Below are positions 20,198 through 57,550 of a DNA stretch of 64,000 nucleotides, in pieces. The translations under genes were made by a program, and so were the position numbers. Under the pieces are notes generated by a model. That model was not told the DNA's origin and ran no database searches. It was given only the letters and a program-made list of their open reading frames with translations. Source of the stretch: Centroscyllium fabricii (Eukaryota); assembly GCA_051313645.2 (NCBI GenBank), contig JBNRSN020000005.1, forward strand, positions 141,236,001-141,300,000. The letters are read 5' to 3'. Positions within the stretch are counted from its first letter, which is position 1. The number at the start of each line of letters is the position of its first letter.

Positions 20198-22312
20198 ACC
20201 TGCACACCTAAAAAAGTAATTTACTGTATGCAATTTGCATGTAATTTATTTGCACTACTCTCGGGAGCGTTGAGTCTTCGTCTCGTTGAATTGTACTAGT
20301 ACTCTGCAATGACAATAAAACTTGAATGGAATTGAATTGAATTGAATTGAGCGATACAACGCCATCATCTGTAACGCTGTCCGCCTGGCACTGAGGTCAG
20401 GCAACGTACCCGACCAGCAATGGGAAACTGTACTCCCTGACGTATTATACTATATTAGGTCGCTCCTTTCTACGGCTATTAATGTCACACCTCATGAGTG
20501 ATTCTTTAACTTTCGGCGTCGCTCCTCACATGGGACATATCTACCATCATGGTTGGTGGCCCCAGTGCACGTGCTACTCCAGAGATTCGTCCGATCAGCC
20601 AAGAATGACCCCCTCATGGATGAGCTGGAACTAACAGAGGTAAACCCCACGTATACACACGTGCGGTACCCTGATGGCCGGGAGTCCACCGTCTCGCTCA
20701 AGGATCTGGCTCCCTGCCCAACCGGTCATAAGAGTCCAAATGAACAGGGATTCCGCAATGATAACACTCTACCCCCTTACGAAAATGACACCCAAACTGG
20801 GACATCGAGGGATCTGCTAGCTACGCTGCTGGATCAATTCAGGGAGTCAAGCACTCCCTGTGGGATGGCCACCCGAAACCAGGATGCCGGTCAGTCCCCA
20901 GCTATGACTCAGGATGAGGCCAGCTCGCCGCCTGTGGGGACCCGCACCCGGAGTCCAGATATTCCCCGTCCTCCACCGGATGATCAAAACGACACAGACT
21001 CTACCGGCCCACCGGTACGGGCCAAGCGACCCAGGGACCAGGACATGGAGGAAGGCGGAAAGCTTGGAGGGCTGGAAGAAGTTCCCCCACTAAGCTTTGT
21101 GTGGCTGCATTCACATGTCATTGGTATGTACCCAGGGCTGCCACCCAATTGTTGACATGTGGGTGCCAGTTGTTCTGCTGCTTTAGCCTATGGCTGTTGC
21201 CCATGAAGCAGTAATCCAGCAACAGATCAGCTCCCCCTCGGGAGAGAGACGAGACATATTCCAACTCCTGACCTGTCAGTCAGCGCTCAGTCTCCCTGGA
21301 AACATGCTGTTCCCAACTCAGACATGTTCCAGCCTTTTAAAACTGGGAAAACTGAAAGCTGATGATCTAATCTCCACCTGTCGGCTTTCAGATCTGATCA
21401 CCACATGTAGTGATTGGGAAAGATTAACAAACATCTTGATGTGCCTTAAATAGAGACTGAGACAGGTAGTTATAACTCAAACAGTTGCCTTTTAATAGCT
21501 TAGAACGGGACCACACTGGAGCCACATGTTGCCTTACAGAAATGGCTTCTCAGACTGAACAAGGAGGCGGAGCCAGGGGCGAGGTCACAGATCTGGACAA
21601 TCAATGGCACAACAGAGTGAACACAGCATTCCAGGCCAACCAAGAAAACAGCAGGGTTGCAATAGATTACAATAGGTAACTGTACACAGGTAGAATGAGG
21701 TATACTTATAAGACTTATTTCACCACACATCTGTATCAGCCCAGTAACCATTTAACACTTCTGAAAGATCAATATATTAGTTTTGATTGAGGACTGTCAT
21801 AGGTTGGCTCTTCCCCTTTAACTCTTAGGTTGGCTCTTCCCCTTTAACTGGTTATCACCTCGTTAGCTCTACTGCCTGCACCTGATTGAACAGCCCAGAT
21901 TCACCAGTGATAATCAAGAGCTGTATATAAGCTCCTACTTTCCACCTAGAGGTTGCCAGATCGTTTGTTCTTTCTGACTGTGATACCTGTGTGCAGTTCC
22001 AAGCTCTCTGATCCTGCCTGTTCGAGATACTGACCTGCTTTCAGGAATTTCGATTCTCTTCTGCCTGACCTCGTTTTAGATTTGTCGCTCCAGTGGACGG
22101 ACTACCCGGTATTGAACTGTTTCTGTATTTGGATTCTCTTCTGCCTGAACTCTGTTTTGGACTTGTTGCCTTCGTGAACTTTCTGCCGATATCGACCTAC
22201 TGTTTCCTATGTCTTCTACTGCTCAGAAATAAAGGAGTTTACTTCTACGTATGTTTTCGGTGTCTTGCATTTGGGCCCAACCTACAACCATTACAGAACG
22301 ATCTGGCCTGAA

Positions 22313-23281
22313 ATGGACCCAGCAGACACACCGAATCGTCTTGCACAGGTCGAGTGCGCTCTAAGGCACCAGGGGCAGGCCTTGGGGAAGCTATTCACTC
22401 AATTGGAGCAGCTAACCGCCGCCCTGATCCAACAGGCTGCTAAGGACGCGGAAGGGATCCCACCACCACCAGTTCTTGCTCCAGCATCGGTGTCGGCATC
22501 CATGCCTCACCCACAAGGCCTCACACCAGAACCCCGGGTCGGGGTCCCGGAGCATTATGCCGGTGAACCTGAGGAATGCAATCCCTTTCTCACAAACTGT
22601 TCCATTCTTTTTGCATTACAGCCCCACACCTTTGCCAATGAGGCGGCAAAGGTAGCCTTTGTTATTAACCACCTTACAGGAAGAGCTCGCCTCTGGGGAA
22701 CCGCTGAGTGGGAGAGAGAGACTCTGGCTTGCTCTTCCTTCCAGAGGTTTGCCATCGAATTAAGAAAGCTGTTCGGCATGGTGACCTACGGCTCTGAAGC
22801 AGCTCGGGGACTCATGAATCTGAGCCAGGGTAATCAGACAGTGGCCGACTATTCCATAGATTTCCGAATCAGAGCTCGTCAGAGTGATTGGAACTCTGCT
22901 GCATTATGTGACGTTTTTCTCCATGGGCTTGCAGAGTACATCAAGGATGAACTGGTCTCCTATGATCTCCCTTCCACCCTGGATGAACTAATTAGTCTTG
23001 CCACCAGGATTGACCTCCGTATCCAGGCGCGTCGACGTGAGAGACGACTGGGAACGACTGGTCGACCCCCTCCGAAACAGTCTCAAGAGATTTCCGTGGC
23101 ACCCAGGTCTACTGCGACAGCAAGGTCACAGTCAGTGGGGCCCGAACCGATGCAGTTGGGTCACACCAGTCTCTCATTGGAGGAGCATGAACGACGCCGC
23201 CATGGGAATCTCTGTCTGTACTGTGGTCAGGCCGGCCATTTTGTTTCCCGATGCCCAGCAAAAGGCCGGGCTCACCAGTAG
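22313..23281 (+). CDS. gag: Sushi-type Gag (retrotransposon gag domain, QGNQTVADYS motif, EPMQLG, CCHC knuckle)
   Basis: ATG at 22313 (MDPAD); CLYCGQAGHFVSRC; open to TAG 23281. Confidence 0.9.
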   Translation: MDPADTPNRLAQVECALRHQGQALGKLFTQLEQLTAALIQQAAKDAEGIPPPPVLAPASVSASMPHPQGLTPEPRVGVPEHYAGEPEECNPFLTNCSILFALQPHTFANEAAKVAFVINHLTGRARLWGTAEWERETLACSSFQRFAIELRKLFGMVTYGSEAARGLMNLSQGNQTVADYSIDFRIRARQSDWNSAALCDVFLHGLAEYIKDELVSYDLPSTLDELISLATRIDLRIQARRRERRLGTTGRPPPKQSQEISVAPRSTATARSQSVGPEPMQLGHTSLSLEEHERRRHGNLCLYCGQAGHFVSRCPAKGRAHQ

Positions 23282-26200
23282 ATGGGGTCGTACTGGTGAG
23301 CCAAACTCCTACAAGACTCTCTCCCAATACACGACCCTTGTGCCAGGCCAGACTTCTTCTTCCCAGTGGATCCCAGATTCTCGCCACCTTTATTGACTCT
23401 GGAGCCGACGTTAACATTATTGATGAGGATCTTGTCACACAGCTGGAGATTGACCGGGTTCCACTGTTGCAGCCGGTTCCTGCCAACGCCCTCGACGGCC
23501 ACCTCCTGGGAACGGTGACACATCAGACCTCACCGGTTCACATGCTTATGTCTGGTAATCATTATGAAAGTATTCAGTTTCATATCCTGAAATCACCTCG
23601 GCTTCCTTTGATTCTGGGACACACTTGGCTTCGCCGCCACAACCCCCACATTGACTGGAACACGGGAACTATTCTGGGGTGGAGTTCCTCCTGTCACCAG
23701 GTCTGTCTGAAACAGGCTATCGTCTCCTGACAGCCATTAACACCTCTTCCCGCTCCAGATCTTTCGGTGGTCCCCACTGAATACCACGATTTTAGGGAGG
23801 TATTCAGCAAGGCTAGAGCCACGTCGCTGCCTCCACATCACCCCTATGACTGCGCCATTGATCTGCTGTCAGGGTCTTCCCACCCAAGGGACGCCTGTAT
23901 TCCTTGTCTGCACCTGAGAGGGAGGCCATGGAAACATACATCAGCGACTCTATGGTGGTGGGGATCATCCATTCCTCTTCATCACCTGCTGGGGCTGGAT
24001 TCTTTTTTGTTGGTAAGAAGGACGGGTTGCTGCGACCATGCATCGACTACAGGGGTCTGAATGACATCACGATAAAGAACTGGTATCCTCTTCCTCTCAT
24101 CTCTTCTGCCTTTGAGTTGCTACAGGGGTCGATCATCTTTACCAAGCTTGACCTTCGTAACGCCTATCACCTGGTCCGGATCCGAGAGGGCGATGAATGG
24201 AAGACAGCTTTCAACACTCCCTCTGGACATTATGAATACCTCGTAATGCCGTTCGGGTTAACCAATGCCCCGGCGGTATTCCAAGCCTTGGTGAATGACG
24301 TGTTAAGAGACATGCTGAACCGGTTTGTGTTCGTTTACATGGACGACATTTTGATTGTTTCTAAGTCTTGTGATGAGCATGTTCACCATGTCCAGACTGT
24401 CCTGCAACGGCTTCTCGAGAACTCGTTATTTGTGAAGGCGGAGAAGTGTGAGTTTCACATCACTACCGTATCTTTCTTGGGGTACATCATTGCGCAGGGG
24501 AGCGTGCAGATGGATCCAGAGAAGGTGTCAGCTGTCGTGTCTTGGCCTATTCCGGAGACACGTAAACAGTTACAGCGGTTCCTGGGGTTCGCTAACTTCT
24601 ATCGAAGGTTCATTCGCGGCTACAGCACGGTAGCGGCCCCGTTATCGGCCCTTACCTCCTCTAAGGTGCCGTTTCTGTGGTCTTCTGCAGCGGAGGAGGC
24701 TTTTCGAGGTCTCAGGTCCCGGTTCACCTCTGCTCCCATTCTCCAGGTGCCTGATCCGGATCAGCAGTTCGTGGTAGAGGTGGACGCATCAGATGTTGGA
24801 GTAGGGGCTATTCTGTCCCAACATTCTGCTTCCGACCAAACGCTACATCCCTGCGCCTATTTTTCTAAACGCCTGTCCTCGGCTGAGATGAATTATGACA
24901 TCGGGAACTGGGAGTTACTGGCGGTCAAGATGGCATTGGAGGAGTGGCGCCATTGGCTAGAGGGGACCAAGCTCCCGTTCCTAGTCTGGACAGACCATAA
25001 AAACCTTGAATACATTCACATGGCCAAGAGGCTAAATTCACGGCAGGCTAGGTGGTCCCTCTTCTTTACCCGTTTCAACTTCACCCTCTCCTACCAGCCT
25101 GGTTCTCGCAATGTGAAGCCTGATGCTCTGTCCCGCCAGTTCCAGAAGGAGGAGAGTTCCGCTCCTGGATCTGACCTCATCCTTCCAGCTCCATGTCTGA
25201 TTGCTGCCGTTACGTGGGAGATCGAGGACAGGGTGAGATCAGCCGTGGAAAATCAGGCTGGACCCAACGGTTGTCCTCCTGACCGTCTATTCGTTCCCAA
25301 GGACCTTCGACCTGATGTTCTCCAGTGGGCCCATGCTTCCAAGCTTTCCTGCCATCCAGGGGCTCAAAGGACCAAGGAGGTTATACTGCGGAGGTTCTGG
25401 TGGGATACTCTGGAAGAAGACACCTGGGAGTTTGTCAACACCTGCTCGGTCTGCAACCAACACAAGCCGTCTCATCGGGCTCCCGCTGGTCTTCTGCAAC
25501 CTCTGCCGGTGCCACATCGTCCTTGGTCCCACATATCCTTGGACTTTGTTACCGGTCTGCCTCCATCCAAGGGACTAACCACTATCCTGACAGTGGTGGA
25601 CCGATTCAGCAAGATGGCTCATTTCATACCTCTGCCTAAACTGCCCTCGGCGAAGGAGACGGCTGAACTTATGCTGCAACATGTTTTCCATCTTCATGGT
25701 CTTCCTGTCGACGTAGTCTCTGATCGGGGTCCACAGTTTATGTCAGTATTCTGGAGGGATTTCTGCAGTCTGATCGGGGCCACAGTCAGTCTGTCTTCGG
25801 GTTTTCATCCGCAGTCCAACAGGCAGTCTGAACGCATGAATCAGGAGATGGAGAAGGCTCTACGATGTATGGTCTCCCAGAATCTCTCTTCCTGGTCCCA
25901 GTTACTCCTGTGGGTAGAGTACGCCCACAACACCCTGACCAGTTCTGCCACCGGACTCTCCCCGTTCCAGTGCGCCTATGGGTTCCAGCCCCCATTGTTT
26001 CCGGACATGGAGAGGGAGGTTTCCTGTCCGTCCATCCAGTCATTTATTCATCGTTGTCACCGGACATGGGACCAGGCACGGACTTTGTTGCTTCGCTCGG
26101 CGGACCGCTACTCTGCTGCTGCCAACCGTCATCGCTCGGAGGCTCCTAACTATCAGGCTGGTCAGAAGGTGTGGCTCTCCACTAAGGACCTGCCCCTCCA

Positions 26201-26732
26201 GGTGGAGTCTACGAAGCTAGCTCCCAGGTTTATCGGTCCCTTCGAGATCCAGAATGTCATCAACCCAGCGGCAGTGAGACTCAAGCTTCCTCGATCCATG
26301 CGGGTTCATCCCACTTTTCATGTGTCGTGGGACAAACCAGCACGAGAGAGTACATTGGTGCCTGTTGCCACGCCACCTCCGCCTCCTCGTATGCTCGACG
26401 GGGGGTTGGTCTACACTGTTCATTGCCTACTTCGCTCCCGTCGCCGAGGGAGAGGACTTCAGTACCTGGTGGACTGGGAGGGGTATGGTCCAGAGGAGAG
26501 GTCCTGGGTTCCTGCTCGTCACATTGCTGATCCGCAGCTTATGGCCGACTTCCACAGAAGGCATCCCGACCAGCCGAGTAGGAGGACTGCACCCCCTGGG
26601 GAGTCTGGGCAAGGGCCCAGTTCCGTGCATTCTCTTGAAACCCTGGACGAGGAGGTGCAATCCTCTGATGAGGAGAATTCCCTTCATTCTAGTGATGAAA
26701 TGGACGTGGATGAGGGTCCCGAGGAATATTAG
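23251..26732 (+). pseudogene. pol: Sushi-type pol (PR-RT-RH-IN-chromodomain) disabled by a stop at 23728-23730 and a frameshift near 23890
   Basis: IDSGA, YMDD, VEVDAS, integrase SLDFV/SDRG, chromodomain [15 protein letters not shown]. Confidence 0.9.
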
Positions 26733-32372: not shown

Positions 32373-32560
32373 GAGACTAATTTTTTGACTGAAGGCCGGT
32401 TTTTGCAACATTGAAAGAGGTTTAAATTGAGACTGGAGCCTTGAATTCGGTTGAAAGTTTTTCGACAGCAAACACTCTGGTCTTAGAATCAGGAAGGACC
32501 TGGACTGGGATTCTGGAGTGCCGGATTTTCAATGGTATCGGAGAGTTTATGAGGAGAGAG

Positions 32561-32633
32561 AAACACAGAAATGCTGCAGGGACCGGGAGCGGACAGCAGG
32601 ATGTCTCCGCTCCGTCCGCTCGCTGCCTTTAAA
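32561..32633 (+). promoter_or_regulatory. H1 promoter: H1 box AAACACA and TATA-like TTTAAA
   Basis: AAACACA at 32561-32567, about 150 bp before the ATG; TTTAAA at 32628. Confidence 0.7.
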
Positions 32634-32711
32634 TTGCTCTGTGCCGCCAGCTCTCGATTCATTTCCCGCCCAGTTCTGACTGTCAGACAGATTTTCTACA
32701 GAGTTCCCGAC

Positions 32712-33275
32712 ATGAATGACACCGAAGCCGCCGAAACGGCTCCTCCTGCCGCCGCCGATCAAATTAAGACTCCCATGAAGCAGAAAACTGTTTCCCGGCC
32801 CAAGAAAGCCGGTCCCAAGTTGGGCGAGCAGATCGTCAAGATTGTGGCGGATTGCAGCGATCGTAAGGGGACGTCCATGGTGGCGATAAAGAAGGCTCTG
32901 GCTGACAGCGGCCTGGATGTGGAGCAGCTCCGGTCCCAGATCAGGGCGAGTATCAAGAGGAATGTGGAACATGGTATCTTGGTGCACACCACGGGCAAGG
33001 GCGCCTCCGGCTCTGTCAAAATGGCAAAGCAGCAAAGCCAGAGAAAAGAGGTCAAGGTGAAGAAAGCAGCGGCCAAGAAATCTCCAGCTAAGAAACCAGC
33101 AGCCAAGAAAACGGGCACCAAGAAGGCGCCAAATAAGAAAAAGGCCCCTGCGAAGAAGCCCCAAACCCCCAAGAGGGCCAGAATCGCAAAGGCGGCCAAG
33201 AGGGTGGAAAAATCGAAGGCCAAGCCCAAGTGGAAATCAGCAAAGGCTGCGAGAGCAGCGCCCAAAAAGAAGTAA
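32712..33275 (+). CDS. H1: Linker histone H1, divergent globular domain, 187 aa
   Basis: GPKLGEQI...IKKALA...DVE...GASGSVK winged-helix pattern; K/A/P-rich tail with SPAK and TPKR; stem-loop follows. Confidence 0.93.
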   Translation: MNDTEAAETAPPAAADQIKTPMKQKTVSRPKKAGPKLGEQIVKIVADCSDRKGTSMVAIKKALADSGLDVEQLRSQIRASIKRNVEHGILVHTTGKGASGSVKMAKQQSQRKEVKVKKAAAKKSPAKKPAAKKTGTKKAPNKKKAPAKKPQTPKRARIAKAAKRVEKSKAKPKWKSAKAARAAPKKK

Positions 33276-35518: not shown

Positions 35519-35910
<392 letters not shown>

Positions 35911-35944
35911 ACCACTCGACCCTTTCCACTCCGCATAAAACAAA

Positions 35945-35960
35945 GGCTCTTTTAAGAGCC
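35945..35960 (+). terminator. Histone 3' stem-loop (H4)
   Basis: GGCTCTTTTAAGAGCC-ACCCA; HDE GAGAGAGC downstream. Confidence 0.95.
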
Positions 35961-37830
35961 ACCCAACACCTCACCGAGAGAGCAGTGACCTGGGACCCAG
36001 AGCGGGGATATATTGTGATGGGATTTGGTTTAAGATAGTTGATGAATATGGGGAGATTTCGCTATGTAAGGTCGCAATATTCCCTGTTAAATCGGATTCA
36101 CAAAGACCAGAAACGAAGGATGGAGTATACACATTTTCTTTTATTTGGACAATGACAGACAAGACAGGCTGCGGCCTGATCAGTGAAAAGGGGCCTCCAA
36201 GATGGCCGCCGGACCACATGGCATAGTGCAAAACCGAAACTAAAACTCAACTCAAAAAGCCCGCGAAGAAACCAGACATAAAGGCGCTGTTAAACCTGTA
36301 AATAAATAGCCTGCCTTTTAGAAACCGATTAGCCCGACAAAGAAATGCACCCAGTTTAAATAAACACCCAAAACAACTGCAAATACGAAGCAGCTGGCCC
36401 GTTTAACCAGCTACAGAAATTGTATACCCTTCCAGCAGAAAGCGATTAGCACCCTTGAAAACAATGGGACTCTAACCGGAGAAGTTAGAGCCACCATCAA
36501 AACTATTACCGGCAGGCTTGGCTGGACAAAAGGAGTGCAGTAACCGCTTTCCACACACAATACAGGCTCTAATGGGAAAGACATTAGACATTTCGACTTT
36601 GGGGTATAACTAGCAGGACATTGCACAGTTCGATCTCTTGGCTCTTGAAAAGCGGTTGGAAACTCTTCTCTCTTGGAACTCTTAGCGCTGAGCTCTTAGC
36701 TCTTCTCATCGGTGAGCTCTTGGAGAAGGCTCTTGGATTTCTCTCTCTTGACTCGTGGAGGCGACCTCTTGAAGCGGTGAGGTCTAGCAGTGACTTTGGG
36801 TGGGCTGTCTTTCTCGAAGACTCCAGTTCAGCTTTCTGGGTGCAGGGCAAGCAGGGTGAAGGCTCTGGCAGGACAGCAGAGTTGGGTCAGGGCAGTATCG
36901 CATCGGAAAACCATTGCCGGTGAGGTAGTTAGTTGCTGAGGCCCATTAGCGAAGCAAGGCATTCAAAGTGAGTGAGTTAGAAAAGGCTGGTTGCAGTTGA
37001 CTAAGAATAAACTAGCATTCGAAGAGTGGGAGAGCAATTAGGCTAGCAGCCCGTTACAGTTCGGCTTGAGAGGGCAGGATCGGCATACCCCAGGGTCCGG
37101 TTCAGCCAGGGAGACGGTGTGGTTGGTGCGAGGAGATAGAGCAGCCTCGAGGAATCCGTCCGGGACCAGCCCGAGCAGGAGCAACCGCTGCCCAAAGGGA
37201 GAAAACAACGAGTGGACTCCCGAATCTTCCACAGCCACGTGACGACCGACGCTGCAGCCGAAGAAGCGAGGAACTTCATAGCAGATCCCGAGTATTACCG
37301 AGTGGTGAGCATGTGCCTCGATCCTACACACCTGGACATAGCTAGGCAATAGAGGGAAGGGTGGTTTATAGGGGGTGTATTTATAGAGTCATTGCCCCGA
37401 TTTACGTTGTGCCGTGCGTTCCCCATCCCATAAGTTATCTGTGTATGTACCTATATATATCTGTTTGGGAAACAGTTGTGGATGTATCATACTGTGTCAC
37501 TCTGATGAAATACAACCTAACTGCTGTAAATATATCTCTTGGTGTAATAAACCTTTATCCTGACTGCTGTAAATATATCTCTTGGTGTAATGAAAACCTT
37601 CCAACTTTACAAACTTTTGTTCGAGTATAAAATATCTGAGTCCAATCGGTATCCATCTCTCTCTCTCTCTCTTCCTGCACCTAAGTCCAGCGTCTAGAAC
37701 CGTAAAGAGTGAGCGATTCGAACCGCTCGCGGGGAGGAGGTTATTGCACGAGGCCTAGCGGACTGCTAGCGCAAGGCAGTAACGGACCCCAAGTCATACA
37801 GTAAAATATACGGCGCACGCTCCTTACAGA

Positions 37831-39753
37831 ATGGCGACCGCGGCAGGACGCTGGCAGCAGGAGAGAGATCTATTGGACTCAGCTTTGAATAAAAGAAGCG
37901 TAATGGAGGAAAGGATTGCTGATTATGTATTCAGCAAAGTTAATTTAACAAAGCAGTGGATTGGGGACCTGTTGGCAGACAAACGCCCACTGGATGCAGC
38001 TATCCGTTGGACGGGTAGCAAGGGGCATAAAAAGGCCGTAGAGAAAGCCGTATGGCTTATGTGTTATAAAAGGCAGGTCCAGCTTTCGGACCAGGTGATT
38101 GCGGCGCAGACCGCGCAGATAAAAGGGTTGGTCCTAGAAGTGGAGGAAAAGGTCTCAGGGGGGCAGCGGTTAATCACCGCGCTAGAGGCTCTAAATAATG
38201 AGCGCCAGGTGAAGACCAACCGTCATGAGGCTAGGGTTGAGCTCCTAGAAAGACAAGTCGTGGAGGCCATGTCAAGTGAAGGGAAGCTCAGGGAAAGGTG
38301 CGTCCGCCTAAGTGGCCAATTGAAGGCACAGGAGGAGGATTTACTGGGGATGAGGGCAGCATACAAAATGTCCCTCGAGGCCAAATATGAGGACGCCGAT
38401 CATAGCGCCTGTTTAAAGGAGATTCAGGACCTCAGGGAGGCCCTGAACAGGTCAAATGGTCTGGTGTGCCTCATCGACCCATCGGTGGGTGAGGTAAAGG
38501 TAGCTCAGGAACCCCCGAAGCCAAAGTTAAGGAGGAGGGCGCCGGAGGCACCAGCCCCCGCGCTCCCCGCGCGATCACCCCACTATACGCAAGCATGGGA
38601 GAAAGGGGACAGAGAGGAGGTGGCGGCAAAGGTTCCCAAAGTGGGGAATCCAGACCCGGCACCCATGTGTCCGGTTCGAGAGACGAGGCGGGGTCCCGAC
38701 ACTGCGGCTGGGGATCCCGGGCCCGTCCTGAATGAGGTTATAGTGCCCCATAGCTCGCAACAGATAAGGAGCATGATAGGGCATTTCAAGAAGCTGTCCG
38801 CAGCAGGCGATCCGTCCCTGCATTTTAGGGAGGTCGAACAGGCCGCAGCAATTAACGGCTGTGACGAAGGGGAGCAAGCCAGGATGTTGCTTTTCTCGTT
38901 GGATAGCTCTATCCTTCAGTGTCTCTCCGACGAGAGCAAAAGGGGGGAGAATTGTTATAACGACCTGCGGGACGAGGTCCTAGAAATATTAGGGATGGAC
39001 GATGAAGGTCCGTTTGTAAGGCTGGGTAGGACCGTGCAGATGGAGGGAGAACCCCCACGGGTTTTCGCCGGGAGGCTGTGGCCTGTGTATCAGCGCAGCT
39101 GCCCAGATGTACCTGCACGGGCTGTTTTGCGCGATGCCGGGAGAGCCCAGTGGCTCCGGTGTATCGTTGCCAACAGCCTACCCGCCGTTAGAGAGCAGGC
39201 GAAGGTGTGGTTTGACCCCACCGATGCTCTAACCACAGAGGAGACGGTCCTCAACCGACTCACGGTTGGGTATAAAAATACAAGGAGTTCGGTGATGCAC
39301 TGCGATAAGGGGAAGGTGTATGCGACTAACGCAAACGCCCCAGCGCAGAGAGAGTGGTATCAGGAGGGGGGCAACCCGGGGCAGTCTACATGTCATAGAT
39401 GCGGGAAGGCAGGCCACTGGCGCAGAGACTGTAGAGCCCCGTGGAGGGAGGTCAAGGAAAGAGCTCCCGCAGCCCCAGCCCGAGCACCCACTCCCACAGG
39501 AGGTGCCGGCGCCACTCTCAGTCCCGAAACAATTGAGTCCATGCTGGAAGCCATGAAGTTTTATATGACTTCCCAGGGGAAGGTAGCCCCAACCCGAGCA
39601 CCCGCTCCCACAGGAGGTGCCGGGGCAACCTTAAGTCCCGAGATGATTGAGTCCACGCTGGGGGCCATGAAGTTGTATATGGCTTCCCAGGGGAAGGCAG
39701 CGGTGGCCACCGGTTCCGCAGGCACCGCAGCCCCTCACGTGGAAACCCAATGA
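37831..39753 (+). CDS. gag: Gag, 640 aa: N-terminal coiled coil, capsid-like region, one CCHC knuckle, 38-aa duplicated tail
   Basis: CHRCGKAGHWRRDC; heptad-rich aa ~85-210; the first ATG overlaps the PBS, so the real start may be downstream (e.g. 37903). Confidence 0.88.
   Translation: MATAAGRWQQERDLLDSALNKRSVMEERIADYVFSKVNLTKQWIGDLLADKRPLDAAIRWTGSKGHKKAVEKAVWLMCYKRQVQLSDQVIAAQTAQIKGLVLEVEEKVSGGQRLITALEALNNERQVKTNRHEARVELLERQVVEAMSSEGKLRERCVRLSGQLKAQEEDLLGMRAAYKMSLEAKYEDADHSACLKEIQDLREALNRSNGLVCLIDPSVGEVKVAQEPPKPKLRRRAPEAPAPALPARSPHYTQAWEKGDREEVAAKVPKVGNPDPAPMCPVRETRRGPDTAAGDPGPVLNEVIVPHSSQQIRSMIGHFKKLSAAGDPSLHFREVEQAAAINGCDEGEQARMLLFSLDSSILQCLSDESKRGENCYNDLRDEVLEILGMDDEGPFVRLGRTVQMEGEPPRVFAGRLWPVYQRSCPDVPARAVLRDAGRAQWLRCIVANSLPAVREQAKVWFDPTDALTTEETVLNRLTVGYKNTRSSVMHCDKGKVYATNANAPAQREWYQEGGNPGQSTCHRCGKAGHWRRDCRAPWREVKERAPAAPARAPTPTGGAGATLSPETIESMLEAMKFYMTSQGKVAPTRAPAPTGGAGATLSPEMIESTLGAMKLYMASQGKAAVATGSAGTAAPHVETQ
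37832..37849 (+). promoter_or_regulatory. Primer binding site complementary to the 3' end of tRNA-Arg(TCG)
   Basis: TGGCGACCGCGGCAGGAC is the reverse complement of GTCCTGCCGCGGTCG-CCA, the vertebrate tRNA-Arg(TCG) 3' end as I recall it; 3 nt after the LTR. Confidence 0.85.
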
Positions 39754-42700
39754 CTAAGACCCGCGCTGCCCATTTACCTGTGTCCGCTCCGTTATGATGC
39801 ATGGAGGAGACCTCTGGTGGAAATGGAGGTGGAGAGACAGGAGGGGAATTATCTGTTGGATACGGGGGCCTCATGCACCGTGATCCATACAGAGAAGCCG
39901 TTTAATTCCCCAATGTCCACCGGAGTCCCTTTTGCATTAGCAGGGTTTACGGGCAAGGAACAGGGGGGCGCGCGCTCTAGGCCACTCTCCATTCAGTTAG
40001 GAGCGCTCCACACCACTTGGGAGTGCATCCTACTGAAATGGGAAGAAGGAGGTGGCAGAGGTATAGTAGGAGCAGATTTTCTGGGAGCACACGGGATCAT
40101 GATCGACTTAAGGAACCACTGTTTATGGGCAGCCGAAAGTGGAAGAGGTGAAGTTGTGGTCATAGGGGAGGAAGAAGAGAAGGGGGCCCTATGCACCATG
40201 AAGCCGTCCGGAGGTTACGACCTCGATAGTTTGTCCAAAGGGGTTCCGGCCGACATGCAGGCGGCCGTAACGTGGAATATAAACGCCTTTGCGACCCACA
40301 AGCACGATTGCGGGAGGGTCTTAGGGTTTGAGGTTAGCGTACAGGGGGATCCCATGTCCCGACCCCAGAAACAGTATAACTTCCCTAAGGAAGCGGAGTC
40401 CGATCTGGAGACAGCGATGTCTTCACTGGTGCGGCAGGGCGTGTTGAGGCCGATAGCCACCCATGTGAACTCTCCGTTGTGGCCCGTACGGAAGCCAGAC
40501 AACTCATGGAGAGCCACGGTGGATTATCGGGTCCTCAACAGTAACATCCCCGCCTGCGCGCCCACGGTGGCAGCAGTTGCCGACCTGATCGGGAGTATTC
40601 CCGCTTCCGCCACGGTGTTTACGGTGTTGGATATTTCCAACGGGTTTTGGTCCATCCCGCTGCGGAGGGAGGATCAGTACAAGTTTGCCTTTACGTTTAA
40701 AGGGCAGCAGTACACGTGGAATTGTTTGCCGCAAGGCTTCCACAACAGCCCCAGTATTTTCCACCAATGTATGGCAGGGAATTTAAAGGAGTTTAGTCAG
40801 CCCAATCAGATAGTGCAGTATGTGGACGACTTACTCCTGTTCACGGACACGAGGGATGAGCACTTGCCATTGCTAGGCGAGCTGCTGGAATTACTGGCTA
40901 GGAAGGGTTTTAAAATAAACCCGAAGAAGGCACGGATTGGCCAGACAGAAGTAAAGTTTCTGGGTCTGACCATCCGCGCGGGGGAAAGGGCCATAGATAA
41001 GGCCAGAAGGGAGTCGGTACAGGAGCTACCGATCCCGACCACCGTAAAGGGTGTGAGGTCCTTTTTGGGATTGACCGGCTATTGCAGAGACTTCATTGAG
41101 GACTATGCAGCCACAGCAGCTCCGCTGCTCCGACTCTTACATAAGGGAGTTGGGTGGTCATGGGATGAGGGCTGCCAGGCGGCGTTTGAAAAGTTGAAAA
41201 GGGACTTGCAAACCGCGCCAGCCCTGGGGGCCATAGAGGGGGGGAAGGAGTTTTCACTGGAGGTAGCAGCCGGCGAAGACAGCTTGAGCGCGGTGCTGCT
41301 CCAAGAGCGGCACGGCAAGCTGCGTCCGGTGGTGTATTCCTCAAGGGTACTCACGGAGGTAGAGAGGGGGTTCTCCAACTGCGAACGGCATCTCTTAGCC
41401 ACGCATTGGGCCGTGAAGAGATCATTAATCTTCACGGGAACCTCTCCCATTACTCTCCTCACCCACCACACGCCCACCAGGATGCTTCTGGATGGGAGGA
41501 TAAAGGATGGGACCGTGAGCAGCGCGAGAATTGCGCGCTGGACTCTTCTGTTGTCCCAAATGGATTTAAAAGTGGAGGGTTTGTGCGAGCCTAAGCTCGC
41601 AGCAAATTTGATGTACCCCGGAACGACCCATCGGTGTTCCGTGGAGGGGTTATGGGAGGTGAACATAGGTCTGCGAGCCGGGATACATCCCACGGGCCGC
41701 GAGATCTATGTTGATGGTTCCAGCACGGTGGTGGCTGGCGAACGACTCACGGGCTGCGGGATTTTTGACCCTACGGCAGACATTGCCTTGGCGGTTAAGC
41801 TTCCCCGCACCATGAGCGCGCAGCAGGCCGAGCTGTCGGCGGTGGCGTACGTGGTAACCCACCCCGAGATCTTCCCAACCCCGTACACAATTTGCTCTGA
41901 TAGTATGTTTACGTGCAACTCGTGCACGGAGTATCTGGCCATATGGTCACGTCGCGGGTACACTTCCGCGGACGGGTGGCCATTAACGGTGAAGCCCTTG
42001 TTGGAGAAGATCCTAGCGGCAGTAGGGGAAGAAGGGGAGATCTTCATCCACAAGGTGAAGGCTCACTCTTCCACGGAACCACGTGGGGGAGGCAATCAGC
42101 GGGCGGATGCGCTGGCCAAGGAGGGTGCTCGTGAAGGCACTTTCTGGGACCCCTACGGGTCCGGACCTGTGGCAGCGATTCGGGACAAGGAGGGGAACCG
42201 CCCCAGGGTTCCCTTGCCTTTGGATCTCAAAACGGTCCAAAACCAGGATCCCGTTTTAAAAGCTGTCCTCAAAGCTATTAGTGAGGACAAGCAGGTAGAG
42301 GGCCCATATAATAGGGCGACCCTCTCCGTTAAGGAAGGAATGTTGTTCAGGGAGGAACAGTGGGTTGTGCCGCAGCAGCACAGGAGGGAATTTCTCCAAT
42401 TGGCCCACGAGGGTCCAGGAGCAGGGCACCCCGGGCCAGAGGTTACGTGGCAACGGGTGGAACAGGCAGGGTGGTGGCCGGGACTCAGGGAAGATGCCCG
42501 AGAGTTCTGCGCCAGCTGCCTGGTGTGCGCTGCAAACAACCCAGACCCCCAAAGGAGGAAAGCGCAGATGGGGCACGTCAGGAGGGTGGAGGGACCGTGG
42601 CAGTCGATCCAAGTCGACTATATAGGGCCCTTACCCACCGCCCAGGGAGGCTATAAATATTGTCTCGTCCTGGTGGACGTGTTCTCCAAATGGGTAGAAG

Positions 42701-44364
42701 CTTTCCCCTGTAGGACGGCTACGGCCTTAGGTACTGCCAGGATTTTGGTCCGGGAGGTGTTCTCACGGTGGGGACTTCCCCGTTTTGTGGAGTCCGACCA
42801 GGGGAGTCACTTCACCGGCCAGGTCATGCAGAACACCCTCATGCTCTTAGGCATTGAAGGGAAATGGCACGTAGCGCACAACCCCCAGTCGTCAGGAATT
42901 GTGGAGCGCATGAACCGTACCCTTAAGGAACGGTTGAGGAAAGAGGCGATGGGCTCGCCCCAGAAATGGGCGGAGATCCTGCCTTTAATCCTCATGGGGA
43001 TCAGGGCCAGCCAGTCGAAAAGTACGGGATATTCCCCGCACGAGCTAATGACTGGAAGGGCCATGTGTACCCCCACTCATGTACTAGCTCCGGTGCTCAC
43101 GGAAGGACAGCTCGAGGAGGTAAAGAAGGACAGGTTTGCCCAAAATCTGTTCGAGCACCTAAAGCGAGTACACGAGCAGGCAGCAGGGAACATGGGCAGA
43201 CAGCATCAGGGGAACAAGCTGTTGCTGGAGCCCCGAAGAACGCAAGAATGGGAAGTGGGAGACCTGGTCATGGTGAGGAACTATGCCCGGGTCGGGAGTT
43301 TAGAGCCACTGTACATGGGGCCCTACAGCATTGTAGATAAGGCAAGCCCCATGGTTTATGCGGTGAAGGTGCCCCGACGCACAAAGTGGTTCCATATAAA
43401 CCAATGTAAAATGTATAAGTCGGGCACGCAGGGGTCGACCACAGGGGCAAGCCCTGTGAGTGGGAACGCCCAGCCAAGTGCAGGACGACAGGTCGCGCAG
43501 GCAGGCAAAGTAGCCTGCGTGAAAGGAGAGGCCCCGATGGAGGAGAGGAGGGTCTCTCGTGCTGTGTGGGATTCGGATGGGGAGGAGCCGGACCAACACA
43601 ACCAAGTGTTGGATCCGAGTGGCCAACCCGACCAAGGGTTGGACCTGATTGACCTATGCGACCCAGTGCTAGAGTCAATCACAGGGGAGGAGGAGGGGTC
43701 GGAGGACGGGGGTTCCGTTCTCGACTCGAATGCCGACGAGGTAGGGATAGCGGGCGGAGACTCACCACCTGAGGAGATAGGTGAGGTGAGGTCAGAAGCC
43801 GCAAGAGATCCCAGTCCCGGGGAAGCGAAGCTGAAGGAGGGAGGGTCGGTGCTGGCAGCTGTGAAGGAGTCACAGGCTGCAGCACGATCCAGCCCGGCCT
43901 TCAGTTCGTCGACGAGGCGAGAGGAGGGAGCGTCGATGCTGACAGATGTGACGGGGTCACAGGCTGTAGCACGACTTGGCCCGGTCCTCAGGTCGTCGAC
44001 CCAGGGGGCTCTCGGTCCCAGGGAAGCGAAGCTGGAGGGAGAGGGGTTGGGGCTGGCAGCTGTGAGGGAGTCACAGGCTGCAGCACAACCTGGCTCGGTC
44101 CTCAGTTCATCGGCCCAGGGAGCAGTACCTAAAGGCACCCTCCGTCGATCGGAAAGGGTACCTCCGCCCAGGAAAGCTTGGCCAGAACCGTCATATGCCC
44201 TCAGGAACAGGAAAAGCCCCCGCAAAAGGATAATTATCCACCCCCGACAAGCAGCACCAGGCTGCGGAGAATCAAAAGCAGCGACAGGCTGCGGGGAACC
44301 AAAGGGAAGGGTCAGCAAGGCACCGCCACGGGGAGCGGCCCACTACGACCCTGACAGGGGATAG
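39754..44364 (+). CDS. pol: Pol: protease, RT, degenerate RNase H (tether), retrovirus-type RNase H, integrase, ~300-aa C-terminal extension; in frame with gag
   Basis: LLDTGAS; LPQGF..YVDD; tether FSLEVAAG..RPVVYSSR; IYVDGSS..SAQQAEL..CSDS..KVKAHS..GNQRADALA; HEGPGAGH..CLVC, QVDYIG, SDQG, GIVER; no stop from 39754 to 44364. Confidence 0.95.
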   Translation, partial: LRPALPIYLCPLRYDAWRRPLVEMEVERQEGNYLLDTGASCTVIHTEKPFNSPMSTGVPFALAGFTGKEQGGARSRPLSIQLGALHTTWECILLKWEEGGGRGIVGADFLGAHGIMIDLRNHCLWAAESGRGEVVVIGEEEEKGALCTMKPSGGYDLDSLSKGVPADMQAAVTWNINAFATHKHDCGRVLGFEVSVQGDPMSRPQKQYNFPKEAESDLETAMSSLVRQGVLRPIATHVNSPLWPVRKPDNSWRATVDYRVLNSNIPACAPTVAAVADLIGSIPASATVFTVLDISNGFWSIPLRREDQYKFAFTFKGQQYTWNCLPQGFHNSPSIFHQCMAGNLKEFSQPNQIVQYVDDLLLFTDTRDEHLPLLGELLELLARKGFKINPKKARIGQTEVKFLGLTIRAGERAIDKARRESVQELPIPTTVKGVRSFLGLTGYCRDFIEDYAATAAPLLRLLHKGVGWSWDEGCQAAFEKLKRDLQTAPALGAIEGGKEFSLEVAAGEDSLSAVLLQERHGKLRPVVYSSRVLTEVERGFSNCERHLLATHWAVKRSLIFTGTSPITLLTHHTPTRMLLDGRIKDGTVSSARIARWTLLLSQMDLKVEGLCEPKLAANLMYPGTTHRCSVEGLWEVNIGLRAGIHPTGREIYVDGSSTVVAGERLTGCGIFDPTADIALAVKLPRTMSAQQAELSAVAYVVTHPEIFPTPYTICSDSMFTCNSCTEYLAIWSRRGYTSADGWPLTVKPLLEKILAAVGEEGEIFIHKVKAHSSTEPRGGGNQRADALAKEGAREGTFWDPYGSGPVAAIRDKEGNRPRVPLPLDLKTVQNQDPVLKAVLKAISEDKQVEGPYNRATLSVKEGMLFREEQWVVPQQHRREFLQLAHEGPGAGHPGPEVTWQRVEQAGWWPGLREDAREFCASCLVCAANNPDPQRRKAQMGHVRRVEGPWQSIQVDYIGPLPTAQGGYKYCLVLVDVFSKWVEAFPCRTATALGTARILVREVFSRWGLPRFVESDQGSHFTGQVMQNTLMLLGIEGKWHVAHNPQSSGIVERMNRTLKERLRKEAMGSPQKWAEILPLILMGIRASQSKSTGYSPHELMTGRAMCTPTHVLAPVLTEGQLEEVKKDRFAQNLFEHLKRVHEQAAGNMGRQHQGNKLLLEPRRTQEWEVGDLVMVRNYARVGSLEPLYMGPYSIVDKASPMVYAVKVPRRTKWFHINQCKMYKSGTQGSTTGASPVSGNAQPSAGRQVAQAGKVACVKGEAPMEERRVSRAVWDSDGEEPDQHNQVLDPSGQPDQGLDLIDLCDPVLESITGEEEGSEDGGSVLDSNADEVGIAGGDSPPEEIGEVRSEAARDPSPGEAKLKEGGSVLAAVKESQAAARSSPAFSSSTRREEGASMLTDVTGSQAVARLGPVLRSSTQGALGPREAKLEGEGLGLAAVRESQAAAQPGSVLSSSAQGAVPKGTLRRSERVPPPRKAWPEPSYALRNRKSPRKRIIIHPRQAAPGCGESKAATGCGEPKGRVSKAPPRGAAHYDPDRG

Positions 44365-47300
44365 GTAGGCCGCCCGGGAGAGGCGGCACTGTATATAATG
44401 AAAAAAAATAAGTTTGGTAGTGTCAAGGGAGTAGCCCGAATTAAGTTTCAATTTTTGTTAAAGGTAAAGGGGAGTGTTTAGGTAATATGGGATCTGTCCA
44501 GGAGGCGTGCACATCTCACCACAGCCAGGCGCTCTTGGGAGGCCGGCAACCCCTTTGTTTGATTACAGAACCCAGAGAGGCGGGGATTCTGATGACGTGT
44601 GCGGGCATCAAAGATGGACTGGCCTGCCGGGGCCACACCGGGGAGTAAGGACGGCTGGGAACGGACCCAATGGAGCATCCCAGCACGTCGGAAATCTGCT
44701 TGTGGAGAGACTTGGTTTTATGTGCCCCGGATCAAGACCATCGCACCCAGGACCGGCGCTATCATCGGTAAAAGGACTTACTTCCGTTGAGGGATAGGAA
44801 GATCACAGCGAGCCGATGGTGGTGGCTGCAGAAGACCGCCAGAACACTGTACAAACTTTGGGGACAAATGGGGGGATTCATGAGGGGAGAAATGTGTGTG
44901 TTTATATGTTCCGGATGGTTGTGTGATGTCTTTCAAGTTAATAAATGATACGAACAGGTGGAGACGAAGGCATCGGCCTGGCAGACGTGGAAGGAACCAG
45001 GAGGTGTAAGACATGGTGGTGTAAATATACGATTGCCCAGGGTAAAGGCAATGCGAGGTTGATCAAAGGGAATGGGAACCGCATGTGTCATGGGGCAAGA
45101 GTTAATTTAGGTAACCAGGAGAGTTGAGGTGTGGAGAATCGGGAATCTTGCTCAACCTTTCTTAATTGATTCGCTAAGCAGGGTTATGCTAATCAACAGG
45201 AGGGACTGTAAGGTCGCAATATTCCCTGTTAAATCGGATTCACAAAGACCAGAAACGAAGGATGGAGTATACACATTTTCTTTTATTTGGACAATGACAG
45301 ACAAGACAGGCTGCGGCCTGATCAGAGAAAAGGGGCCTCCAAGATGGCCGCCGGACCACATGGCATAGTGCAAAACCGAAACTAAAACTCAACTCAAAAA
45401 GCCCGCGAAGAAACCAGACATAAAGGCGCTGTTAAACCTGTAAATAAATAGCCTGCCTTTTAGAAACCGATTAGCCCGACAAAGAAATGCACCCAGTTTA
45501 AATAAACACCCAAAACAACTGCAAATACGAAGCAGCTGGCCCGTTTAACCAGCTACAGAAATTGTATACCCTTCCAGCAGAAAGCGATTAGCACCCTTGA
45601 AAACAATGGGACTCTAACCGGAGAAGTTAGAGCCACCATCAAAACTATTACCGGCAGGCTTGGCTGGACAAAAGGAGTGCAGTAACCGCTTTCCACACAC
45701 AATACAGGCTCTAATGGGAAAGACATTAGACATTTCGACTTTGGGGTATAACTAGCAGGACATTGCACAGTTCGATCTCTTGGCTCTTGAAAAGCGGTTG
45801 GAAACTCTTCTCTCTTGGAACTCTTAGCGCTGAGCTCTTAGCTCTTCTCATCGGTGAGCTCTTGGAGAAGGCTCTTGGATTTCTCTCTCTTGACTCGTGG
45901 AGGCGACCTCTTGAAGCGGTGAGGTCTAGCAGTGACTTTGGGTGGGCTGTCTTTCTCGAAGACTCCAGTTCAGCTTTCTGGGTGCAGGGCAAGCAGGGTG
46001 AAGGCTCTGGCAGGACAGCAGAGTTGGGTCAGGGCAGTATCGCATCGGAAAACCATTGCCGGTGAGGTAGTTAGTTGCTGAGGCCCATTAGCGAAGCAAG
46101 GCATTCAAAGTGAGTGAGTTAGAAAAGGCTGGTTGCAGTTGACTAAGAATAAACTAGCATTCGAAGAGTGGGAGAGCAATTAGGCTAGCAGCCCGTTACA
46201 GTTCGGCTTGAGAGGGCAGGATCGGCATACCCCAGGGTCCGGTTCAGCCAGGGAGACGGTGTGGTTGGTGCGAGGAGATAGAGCAGCCTCGAGGAATCCG
46301 TCCGGGACCAGCCCGAGCAGGAGCGACCGCCGCCCAAAGGGAGAAAACAACGAGTGGACTCCCGAATCTTCCACAGCCACGTGACGACCGACGCTGCAGC
46401 CGAAGAAGCGAGGAACTTCGTAGCAGATCCCGAGTATTACCGAGTGGTGAGCATGTGCCTCGATCCTACACACCTGGACATAGCTAGGCAATAGAGGGAA
46501 GGGTGGTTTATAGGGGGTGTATTTATAGAGTCGTTGCCCCGATTTACGTTGTGCCGTGCGTTCCCCATCCCATAAGTTATCTGTGTATGTACCTATATAT
46601 ATCTGTTTGGGAAACAGTTGTGGATGTATCATACTGTGTCACTCTGATGAAATACAACCTAACTGCTGTAAATATATCTCTTGGTGTAATAAACCTTTAT
46701 CCTGACTGCTGTAAATATATCTCTTGGTGTAATGAAAACCTTCCAACTTTACAAACTTTTGTTCGAGTATAAAATATCTGAGTCCAATCGGTATCCATCT
46801 CTCTCTCTCTCTCTTCCTGCACCTAAGTCCAGCGTCTAGAACCGTAAAGAGTGAGCGATTCGAACCGCTCGCGGGGGAGGAGGTTATTGCGCGAGGCCTA
46901 GCGGACTGCTAGCGCAAGGCAGTAACGGACCCCAAGTCGTACAGTAAAATATACGGCGCACGCTCCTTACAGCTAAGACTCACTAACGGGGGCGGGGATA
47001 TGTTGTGGTCGGAGAGAGTATTTCTCTTCTCTCTGGGACATTATTTCCGCACTGGGTGTAGTCTTTTAGTACGATCTAAAACAAATTGTAAATTAATAAA
47101 ACTTAAATAAACATTTTATTTTCCGTGTTGATGATGCACTCCAGTCGCCGCGGCGCCCGCCCTGGGTGTAAAGACAGCGAGGTCACCCTCACATGAACAC
47201 CAGTCTCCATTCCGGCTCTCCTCACATTTATTTAAATACCGGTATCTGCAATAGTGTAAAACGGGAGATAGCGTGTCGGCACCATTGAAGTCAATGCGAA

Positions 47301-56409: not shown

Positions 56410-57550
56410 CTAGAAGCGGCTGTCTATGAGCCTCCGACGCACAGCCCTTCCACTTTCCACATGCCTCCTGCGTTGGCGCTGCTGTTGATGCTCCTCATCT
56501 TCCTGCTCCTCCAACTCCTCCTCCTCCTCCTCTGGTGCTGCAACAATGTCTGGCAGTAGTAGCTGGATCCTCAGGATTGCCAAGATATGCAGCATGCAGC
56601 GGACAACGACGAAGCAGGACACTTCGTCAGGCGCGTACTGGAGGGCTCCTCCAGAATGGTCCAGAGAGCGGAACCATTGTTTGAGCACGCCAATTGTCTG
56701 CTCAATGAGGTTCCTAGTCGCCTGATGGCTCTCATTGTATCGAAGCTCAAAAGGGGTTTGGGGCGCACGGAGCGGGGTCATCTGCCAGGTGGTCAGAGCA
56801 TATCCCTTGGCCCCGAGAAGCCATCCAGCTGGGTGATTCGGTGCCTGAAAGAAGTCTGCCACAGTAGTCTGGCACAGTATGAAGGCATCGTGGGTGCTGC
56901 CTGGATAGTACGCATTCACAGCGAGGATCAGCTGTCGGTGGTCACACACCAGCTGTACGTTTAGGGAATGGAAACCCTTTCTGTCGCGGTATTGCTCAGC
57001 ATTGTGATACGGCGGCCGCAAAGCCACATGCATGCAGTCAATGGTGCCCTGCACCATGGGGAATCCCTGCACATTGGCAAACCCCTCATGGCATTCCTGC
57101 TGCTTGTTCGGGGCCATGGGGAATGATATATACTGTTGCCTCCTTCTGTATAGGATTTCTGTGACCTGATGGATGGAGCAATTGCGAGATGTTAGCTAAG
57201 TCCCCAGTACCTGCCTGAAATGAGCCAGTGGCATAAAAGTTGAGAGCCACAGTAACCTTCATTGCCACCGACAGAGAAGTCCAGGTCCTCTGTTGAGGCT
57301 GCAGGTCTGGCTGAAGCAGCTGGCAGAGCTCCGTGACCACCTCCTTCCTGAAGCACAGTCTGCACAGACACTGCTCCTCAGACATAATCATGTATGAGTA
57401 TTGCTGTCCAAAAACCCTGCCATGGTAAGGTCTCCGGTGCACACGTCTGTCTGCCCTCCCGCGCCTGGCCATGACTGGTGCTCACTGTCGGCGTCTCTGT
57501 AGGCGTCTCTGTGCCCTGCCAATGTAATGCAGCAGGACACCACCCCCATC
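56410..57550 (-). pseudogene. HARBI1-like DDE transposase, frameshifted, catalytic Asp lost
   Basis: GTIDCMHV, RKGFHSLNVQLVCD, PGSTHDAFI, LLGAKGY (normally LLGD), IEQTIGVLK; N-terminal part in ORF 57086-57472. Confidence 0.88.

Follow-up and report, generated by a model that had tools for sequence, protein, structure and literature searches.

An endogenous long terminal repeat (LTR) element of the cartilaginous fish Centroscyllium fabricii carries its gag and pol genes in one reading frame, separated by a single opal stop codon in the context TGA-CTA-AG (39751..39758). Readthrough of this UGA, which is shared by the whole family of the element, is probably the best explanation of how Pol is made, most likely through a type II signal. 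The element occupies positions 36065-46971 of the window, by which we mean the entire stretch of 64,000 nucleotides analysed (assembly GCA_051313645.2, contig JBNRSN020000005.1, positions 141,236,001 to 141,300,000 of the forward strand), and the features listed for it are on the plus strand. An earlier note on this DNA had proposed that a Gag-Pol protein of about 2177 residues is produced by UGA readthrough.

The gag gene (37831..39753; 640 amino acids from the ATG at 37831) ends in the codons ACC CAA TGA, with the stop at 39751-39753, and the same frame runs on through CTA AGA CCC to GTG (39817), GAA and ATG (39823). The two stop-to-stop open reading frames (ORFs), 37783-39753 and 39754-44364, lie in this frame, and numerous stops interrupt the other two. 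The in-frame continuation past CAA TGA into the protease and the separation of gag and pol by just one codon, both pointed out in the earlier note, are thus borne out, and gag, stop and pol together amount to 2177 codons from ATG 37831, in agreement with the length given there for the putative readthrough product. Pol (39754..44364, 1536 codons) begins with CTA-AGA and comprises the protease, reverse transcriptase (RT), tether, RNase H, integrase, and a low-complexity tail, with its catalytic motifs in place and the codon of the catalytic protease Asp at 39859. As the note had warned, a pol start at 39817 hides the junction, this GTG being internal to a frame that is open from 39754. Frameshifting is excluded because gag and pol share their frame; no slippery heptamer of the XXXYYYZ type is listed in 39501-39830.

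The codon CTA accounts for 20 of the 2178 codons of gag and pol (0.9%), so that its presence right after the stop would be expected by chance about once in 100 cases; CTA and CGG together make up 1.8% of the codons of pol. UGA-CUA is the type II readthrough consensus (PMC3159437), and by itself it directs 1.5% readthrough in reporters (PMC4132726).

The first ATG of pol, at 39823 and with none earlier in the pol ORF, is located 12 residues before the catalytic Asp, compared with 19-29 residues in the 16 reference loci where pol has a Met of its own, and the Pfam RVP match starts upstream of it, at pol residue 17. The stop lies 36 residues before this Asp, the distance being 27-32 in the reference loci with gag in frame (11 of 37). 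Between the stop and the ATG, all four places that vary among copies (at a frequency of at least 2%) are synonymous third positions, which argues that the pol frame is already translated directly past the stop; third positions also make up 23 of the 27 variable places in 39700-40100. Since frameshifting is excluded, a start at the ATG would cut the protease, and the stretch upstream of it is constrained, readthrough would be the simplest route to Pol. Most ribosomes would stop at the UGA and release the 640-residue Gag, and a few percent would insert an amino acid at this codon, the following CUA weakening termination as in a type II signal of Beier and Grimm. The latter ribosomes would make the Gag-Pol of 2177 residues, from which the protease would free itself, and a long-range stem predicted 8 nt past the stop might, on weak support, be of help.

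The TGA is not specific to the copy in the window, since no variant of it is seen in contigs, it stands in the same place in a diverged subfamily, and three of four Gag proteins of a skate end alike. Copies were compared over 39700-40100 in the contigs of four sequencing runs (X1, X15, X16, and X18), in which depth is not copy number and rare variants are dropped. The 1335 contigs of X1 show 30 differences at a frequency of at least 2%, at 27 places that all fall within 39792-40068, and none at this threshold in 39700-39791, thus none at TGA or CTA. The invariance of TGA-CTA across copies, by which the earlier note had proposed to check its claim, is therefore confirmed at this level, and no sense codon was found at the place of the stop. 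The 11 contigs of X16 span the stop with no difference listed there, and the single contig of X15, which has low depth, might be the very source of the window and is not counted as independent, is identical over it; X18 left the stop uncovered. The diverged subfamily (six contigs of X1 and one of X16) has a different gag end, joins the element at the T of the stop, and carries AAG as the codon before it, and one further contig, which joins at 39750, carries AGA. It is the 3' side of the stop that is conserved, and CAA, which the note had counted as part of the context, is dispensable. In the diverged copy of X16, seven of the 11 differences are listed, all of them from 39792 onward.

The only Gag relative found, with 60% identity, comes from the skate Rhinoraja longicauda, where three of the four proteins of the cluster have a tail as long as that of the element and stop at the codon equivalent to its TGA, the fourth being a truncated model of 334 amino acids. 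No longer fused protein was found among the Gag relatives searched, which is a weak negative. Separately, A>G and T>C make up 18 of the 30 differences from the window copy in 39700-40100, and C>T or G>A only three. The coelacanth gene model P0004 has Gln-Gly at the place of the stop and the next codon, 36 residues before the protease Asp, and this protein model would fit a junction of the TAG-G type in the coelacanth lineage.

The same context is present in lokiretroviruses. A metagenome scan returned 78 loci with 26-34% RT identity, of which one (L001) has an intact in-frame layout of gag, stop, and pol, many others being without an open RT frame or cut by contig ends. L001 has a loki-type RT and an env matching PF00523, and the codons between its gag end and pol are GCA-TGA-CTA-AGT, in frame, with a local hairpin predicted downstream of them (z -2.56). 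As a side observation, this locus (MDSQ01000497.1) is a near-complete lokiretrovirus with a frameshifted gag and a stop in pol, taken from a metagenome assembly and presumably representing host DNA. Among the 24 lokiretrovirus consensus entries in the supplement of PMC7947760, 16 include a Gag-bearing protein, nine as a single Gag-Pol ORF and seven as a separate Gag. Six of these seven separate gag genes (Bsp, Ofa, Dcl, Lro, Pyo, and Sau) end in TGA-CTA-(A/G)G; in the remaining one, Tfu, the annotation runs to a TAA, the same word being present with an N ahead of it, and one further entry with no Gag annotation also has the TGA-CTA word. As judged by eye, the frame runs on after the stop and leads to the annotated pol or to sequence homologous with the start of L001 pol. 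Readthrough, stop codons, and frameshifting are not mentioned in the main text of PMC7947760, which was searched whole, nor in the text available of the Odin paper (PMC9040795), and no passage containing both junction words turned up in the supplement of the latter.

An extended 3' stem after a spacer of 8-12 nt is frequent in type II signals and not obligatory (PMC3159437). In the element, 39754-39850 folds with a stability typical of shuffled sequences (z -0.33, with 72 of 200 as good), and local folds of 71-147 nt are equally ordinary (z -0.81 to +0.81). The fold that the earlier note had proposed to examine is therefore not borne out, and any stimulatory structure would need about 230 nt and not the 100 nt named there. 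In contexts of at least 250 nt, a long-range stem is predicted, with its 5' arm at 39762..39790, starting 8 nt after the stop, and its 3' arm at 39944..39972; its pair probabilities are high in four wider contexts, and the fold of 39754-39985 has a z-score of -3.41, with none of 200 shuffles as good. One natural variant falls in the basal arms and keeps the pair, and the arms are depleted of variants when all third positions are counted without correction (1/23 vs 22/82, p 0.015). The layout resembles that of alphaviruses, and these data weakly suggest the predicted stem as a lead only.

Several points weigh against type II readthrough or its predicted stem. The stem window ranks only 9th by z-score among 54 windows of the element, four natural variants break the upper stem, no compensatory change is seen in it among the natural variants, and the depletion of variants in the arms loses significance when restricted to A/T third positions so as to account for base composition (1/6 vs 17/39, p 0.21). 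The fourth base past the stop is A and not the G of the stronger mammalian motif, CUAG (PMC4132726); Sindbis virus also has A at this place (PMC13517186). The gag-UGA-pol junction of Tca2 failed, on its own, to direct readthrough (PMC2194720). Regarding conservation, four of the 11 differences of the diverged X16 copy are unlisted and could lie in 39752-39762, and the identity of the skate stop codon is not visible in what are proteins only. Finally, even though the conserved stop and the coding constraint support the interpretation advanced in the earlier note, readthrough itself, its rate, and the inserted amino acid are all deduced.

Readthrough would not be needed if Pol had an RNA of its own, produced by splicing or by separate initiation, or if its translation began at a near-cognate CTG (39766 or 39778), much as Pol of foamy viruses has its own start; we consider this explanation unlikely. 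In-frame CTG codons do sit upstream of the protease core, pol of foamy viruses is started separately (PMC8278194), a minor promoter is located in the Tca2 junction (PMC2194720), and in Lro, one of the lokiretrovirus consensus entries, an ATG comes two codons past the same stop, which would also allow reinitiation. However, pol of the foamy type has its own ATG about 20 residues before the Asp and in another frame than gag, and reference loci of the foamy type have this frame closed ahead of pol, whereas in the element the ATG would cut the protease at 12 residues, the frame is that of gag, and it is open upstream for 656 codons. As to a splice acceptor, no AG in 39600-39900 is preceded by a pyrimidine share above 0.63, and this explanation would leave the CTA after the stop unexplained both in the element and in lokiretroviruses. 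Somewhat less likely still would be a bypass of the stop by a signal other than UGA-CUA, such as a distant RNA element, a factor encoded by the element, or termination and reinitiation. Tca2 provides a precedent for such a non-canonical bypass (PMC2194720), and many windows of the element are more structured than the junction, but the context is a textbook type II signal that recurs in seven lokiretrovirus consensus junctions and in L001, and UGA-CUA works alone in reporters (PMC4132726).

It is highly improbable that the TGA arose as a nonsense mutation, either in this copy or in a subfamily that is not autonomous, and that active elements have a single gag-pol ORF. Such ORFs are found in nine of the 16 lokiretrovirus consensus entries with Gag, and P0004 has Gln at the equivalent place, yet this candidate was already largely refuted by the comparison of copies: the contigs have no other letter at the stop, and its position is the same in the diverged subfamily and in the skate family at 60% Gag identity. 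In addition, pol is under purifying selection. Decoding of the UGA as selenocysteine deserves even less credence. The codon is the appropriate one, and poxviruses have decoded UGA in this way (PMC8310308); nevertheless, a search of 35800-47200 for a selenocysteine insertion sequence (SECIS) or any other Rfam match, up to an E value of 1, returned nothing except a histone stem-loop, and the UGA falls in a linker and not in an active site.

Readthrough of the UGA would not make the opal stop itself a novelty. According to a 2026 review (PMC13517186), UGA is found at the gag-pol junctions of SSSV (UGAAGA), ZFERV (UGACGA), and RMEV (UGAAGU), and UAGGGC at that of the snakehead retrovirus (SnRV); XtERV-S also has a TGA there (PMC8278194). 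The review describes UAG-G and a pseudoknot as the signal of retroviral readthrough, apart from a few fish and frog viruses that have UGA in mixed contexts, and states that epsilonretroviral readthrough is untested, as is any signal outside gammaretroviruses; the sections available of it do not mention lokiretroviruses, sharks, or UGA-CUA at gag-pol. In the literature searched, which did not extend to Repbase reports and subscription journals, no gag-pol junction of a retrovirus is described with UGA-CUA, and no paper was found on lokiretrovirus readthrough or on ERV4 together with snakehead. As far as searched, therefore, the opal stop is not new and the UGA-CUA context common to the element and lokiretroviruses is unreported, although such junctions may already be recorded in Repbase entries.

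The element is a young insertion, as judged from a 4-bp target-site duplication (36061..36064 and 46972-46975) and from its two LTRs, which have TG...CA ends and are 99.5% alike, with eight differences: a 5' LTR of 1764 bp (36065..37828) and a 3' LTR of 1765 bp (45207..46971). Its primer-binding site (PBS, 37832..37849) overlaps the ATG of gag (A-TGG), which is placed two bases past the LTR (37829-37849), and shares 13 of 17 letters, read by eye, with that of SnRV, represented here by locus L079. The primer of SnRV is an arginine tRNA, which is a candidate for the PBS at hand as well, and no tRNA gene for comparison was found in the window. The skate Gag relative begins at the Met equivalent to ATG 37831 and, given this shared Met and the overlap of ATG and PBS, the tRNA primer would dictate the first residues of Gag.

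Further downstream, gag encodes one CCHC knuckle (about 39388-39435) and contains, near its 3' end, a 114-bp duplication (39471-39698). Pol has a dual RNase H (Pfam RT_RNaseH at 470-602 and RNase_H at 650-792), a trait common to all retroviruses. Past the integrase (43430-44364), it runs on for about 310 residues of low complexity, internally repeated with repeats of 87 and 114 bp, whereas the Pol of relatives ends near the end of the integrase. An antisense ORF of 328 codons with no Pfam match (43356-44342) overlaps this tail. Between pol and the 3' LTR there are 842 bp with no ORF of 150 codons or more (44365..45206), including a short purine tract (45198-45205). Neither an env ORF nor a remnant of one was found in the element, nor a fusion glycoprotein of the PF00523 type.

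RT, tether, and integrase were compared with those of eight reference loci. Among these, L079 has the nearest RT, at 45% identity as opposed to 30-37% for the other references; the junction of this locus, UAGGGC, matches that of SnRV (PMC13517186), whose genome has 10,688 nt (PMC12193657). The named Pol relatives come from the coelacanth and from frogs (43-45%), and scans of viral contigs with single queries found no relative. In a quick RT tree of 59 rows (33 of 92 being left out as redundant or short) and a careful one of 32 rows, with no ERV-L reference, the element falls outside the foamy, gamma, and delta clades, on an open fork beside SnRV and the frog and coelacanth rows. In the careful tree, the loki-type rows, only three in number, group with 99/99 support and leave the element outside, and RT identity to lokiretroviruses is 35%; forcing the element to join the loki-type rows costs 12 log-likelihood units (lnL) and is not rejected (p-AU 0.142). 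In contrast to RT, the integrase and the tether are closer to L001 than to SnRV (256 vs 139 bits and 90 vs 50 bits, respectively), L001 being the best integrase match of the eight loci, and the integrase tree leaves the element unplaced. Lokiretroviruses have an integrase related to CGIN1/NYNRIN. The best named hits of the element are annotated as NYNRIN-like, and an assignment to lokiretroviruses derived from them was dropped after the RT comparison. With these reservations, the RT would make the element a class III endogenous retrovirus (ERV) similar to SnRV, and not a lokiretrovirus; SnRV-like class III ERVs form the clade Huo (PMC8922424).

The element inserted about 150 bp past a histone H4 gene with a 3' stem-loop (35599-35986), and a linker histone ORF is located further upstream (32553-33275). 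Canonical H4 has Arg45 and Thr54; this copy has Trp and Ser in their place and is perhaps decaying. The window also contains two more LTR retrotransposons of the gypsy type with long open pol frames (16078-19902 on the minus strand and 22178-26732 on the plus strand), one of them with a chromodomain, as well as several nested repeats, a DDE transposase ORF (56410-57195), and fragments of long interspersed nuclear elements (LINEs).

A conserved UGA-CUA junction adds an alphavirus-type signal to retroviruses, in the form of a short sequence that can be tested directly in reporters, and it corrects an annotation error: in this family, as in several lokiretroviruses, the annotated pol begins at an internal ATG or TTG, at the cost of part of the protease. 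With lokiretroviruses as the sister group of other retroviruses, the context in common is relevant to the way in which Gag-Pol originally arose, and making the enzymes through UGA-CUA may be common among the deepest retroviral branches. A tentative and rather doubtful extension would be that UGA-CUA-(A/G)G is an old, overlooked gag-pol signal that dates from the root of the retrovirus tree and was passed on to lokiretroviruses and to the cartilaginous-fish lineage, the codon position having later switched among type II (UGA-CUA), type III (UAG-G, the state of SnRV), and a sense codon. If this were true, alphavirus-type stop-codon readthrough would be a candidate for the ancestral way in which retroviruses made Pol. 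The main alternative to common ancestry is convergence on a short, strong motif.

Among known systems, the alphaviruses offer the closest signal: in Sindbis virus, for example, UGA-CUA-A stands in frame ahead of the polymerase, as it does in the element (PMC3159437, PMC13517186), where it belongs to a retroviral gag-pol junction. As in MoMLV and other gammaretroviruses, one in-frame stop would set the ratio of Gag to Gag-Pol; however, gammaretroviruses belong to another RT clade and combine UAG-G with a pseudoknot, a type III arrangement different from the TGA-CTA found here. The contrast with gammaretroviruses drawn in the earlier note holds insofar as TAG-G is found in all ten reference loci of the gamma type that have gag in frame, but it was too narrow, since UGA is known in SSSV, ZFERV, RMEV, and XtERV-S, and TGA-CTA is common to lokiretroviruses. 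All four of these viruses share the opal stop with the element, whereas the contexts printed for the first three differ from UGA-CUA. SnRV and the element have in common a single in-frame stop 32-36 codons before the protease Asp, a similar PBS, and the dual RNase H, while SnRV has TAG-GGC, an env, and accessory genes, and the element has TGA-CTA and no env. From lokiretroviruses, whose reported hosts exclude cartilaginous fishes (PMC7947760), the element differs in having no fusion-glycoprotein env, in its Gag, for which no similarity was detected, and in its stop, which nine of their consensus entries do not have at gag-pol; with six of the seven separately annotated gag genes and with L001 it shares a gag ending in TGA-CTA-(A/G)G in frame with pol, and with the group a dual RNase H and a related integrase.

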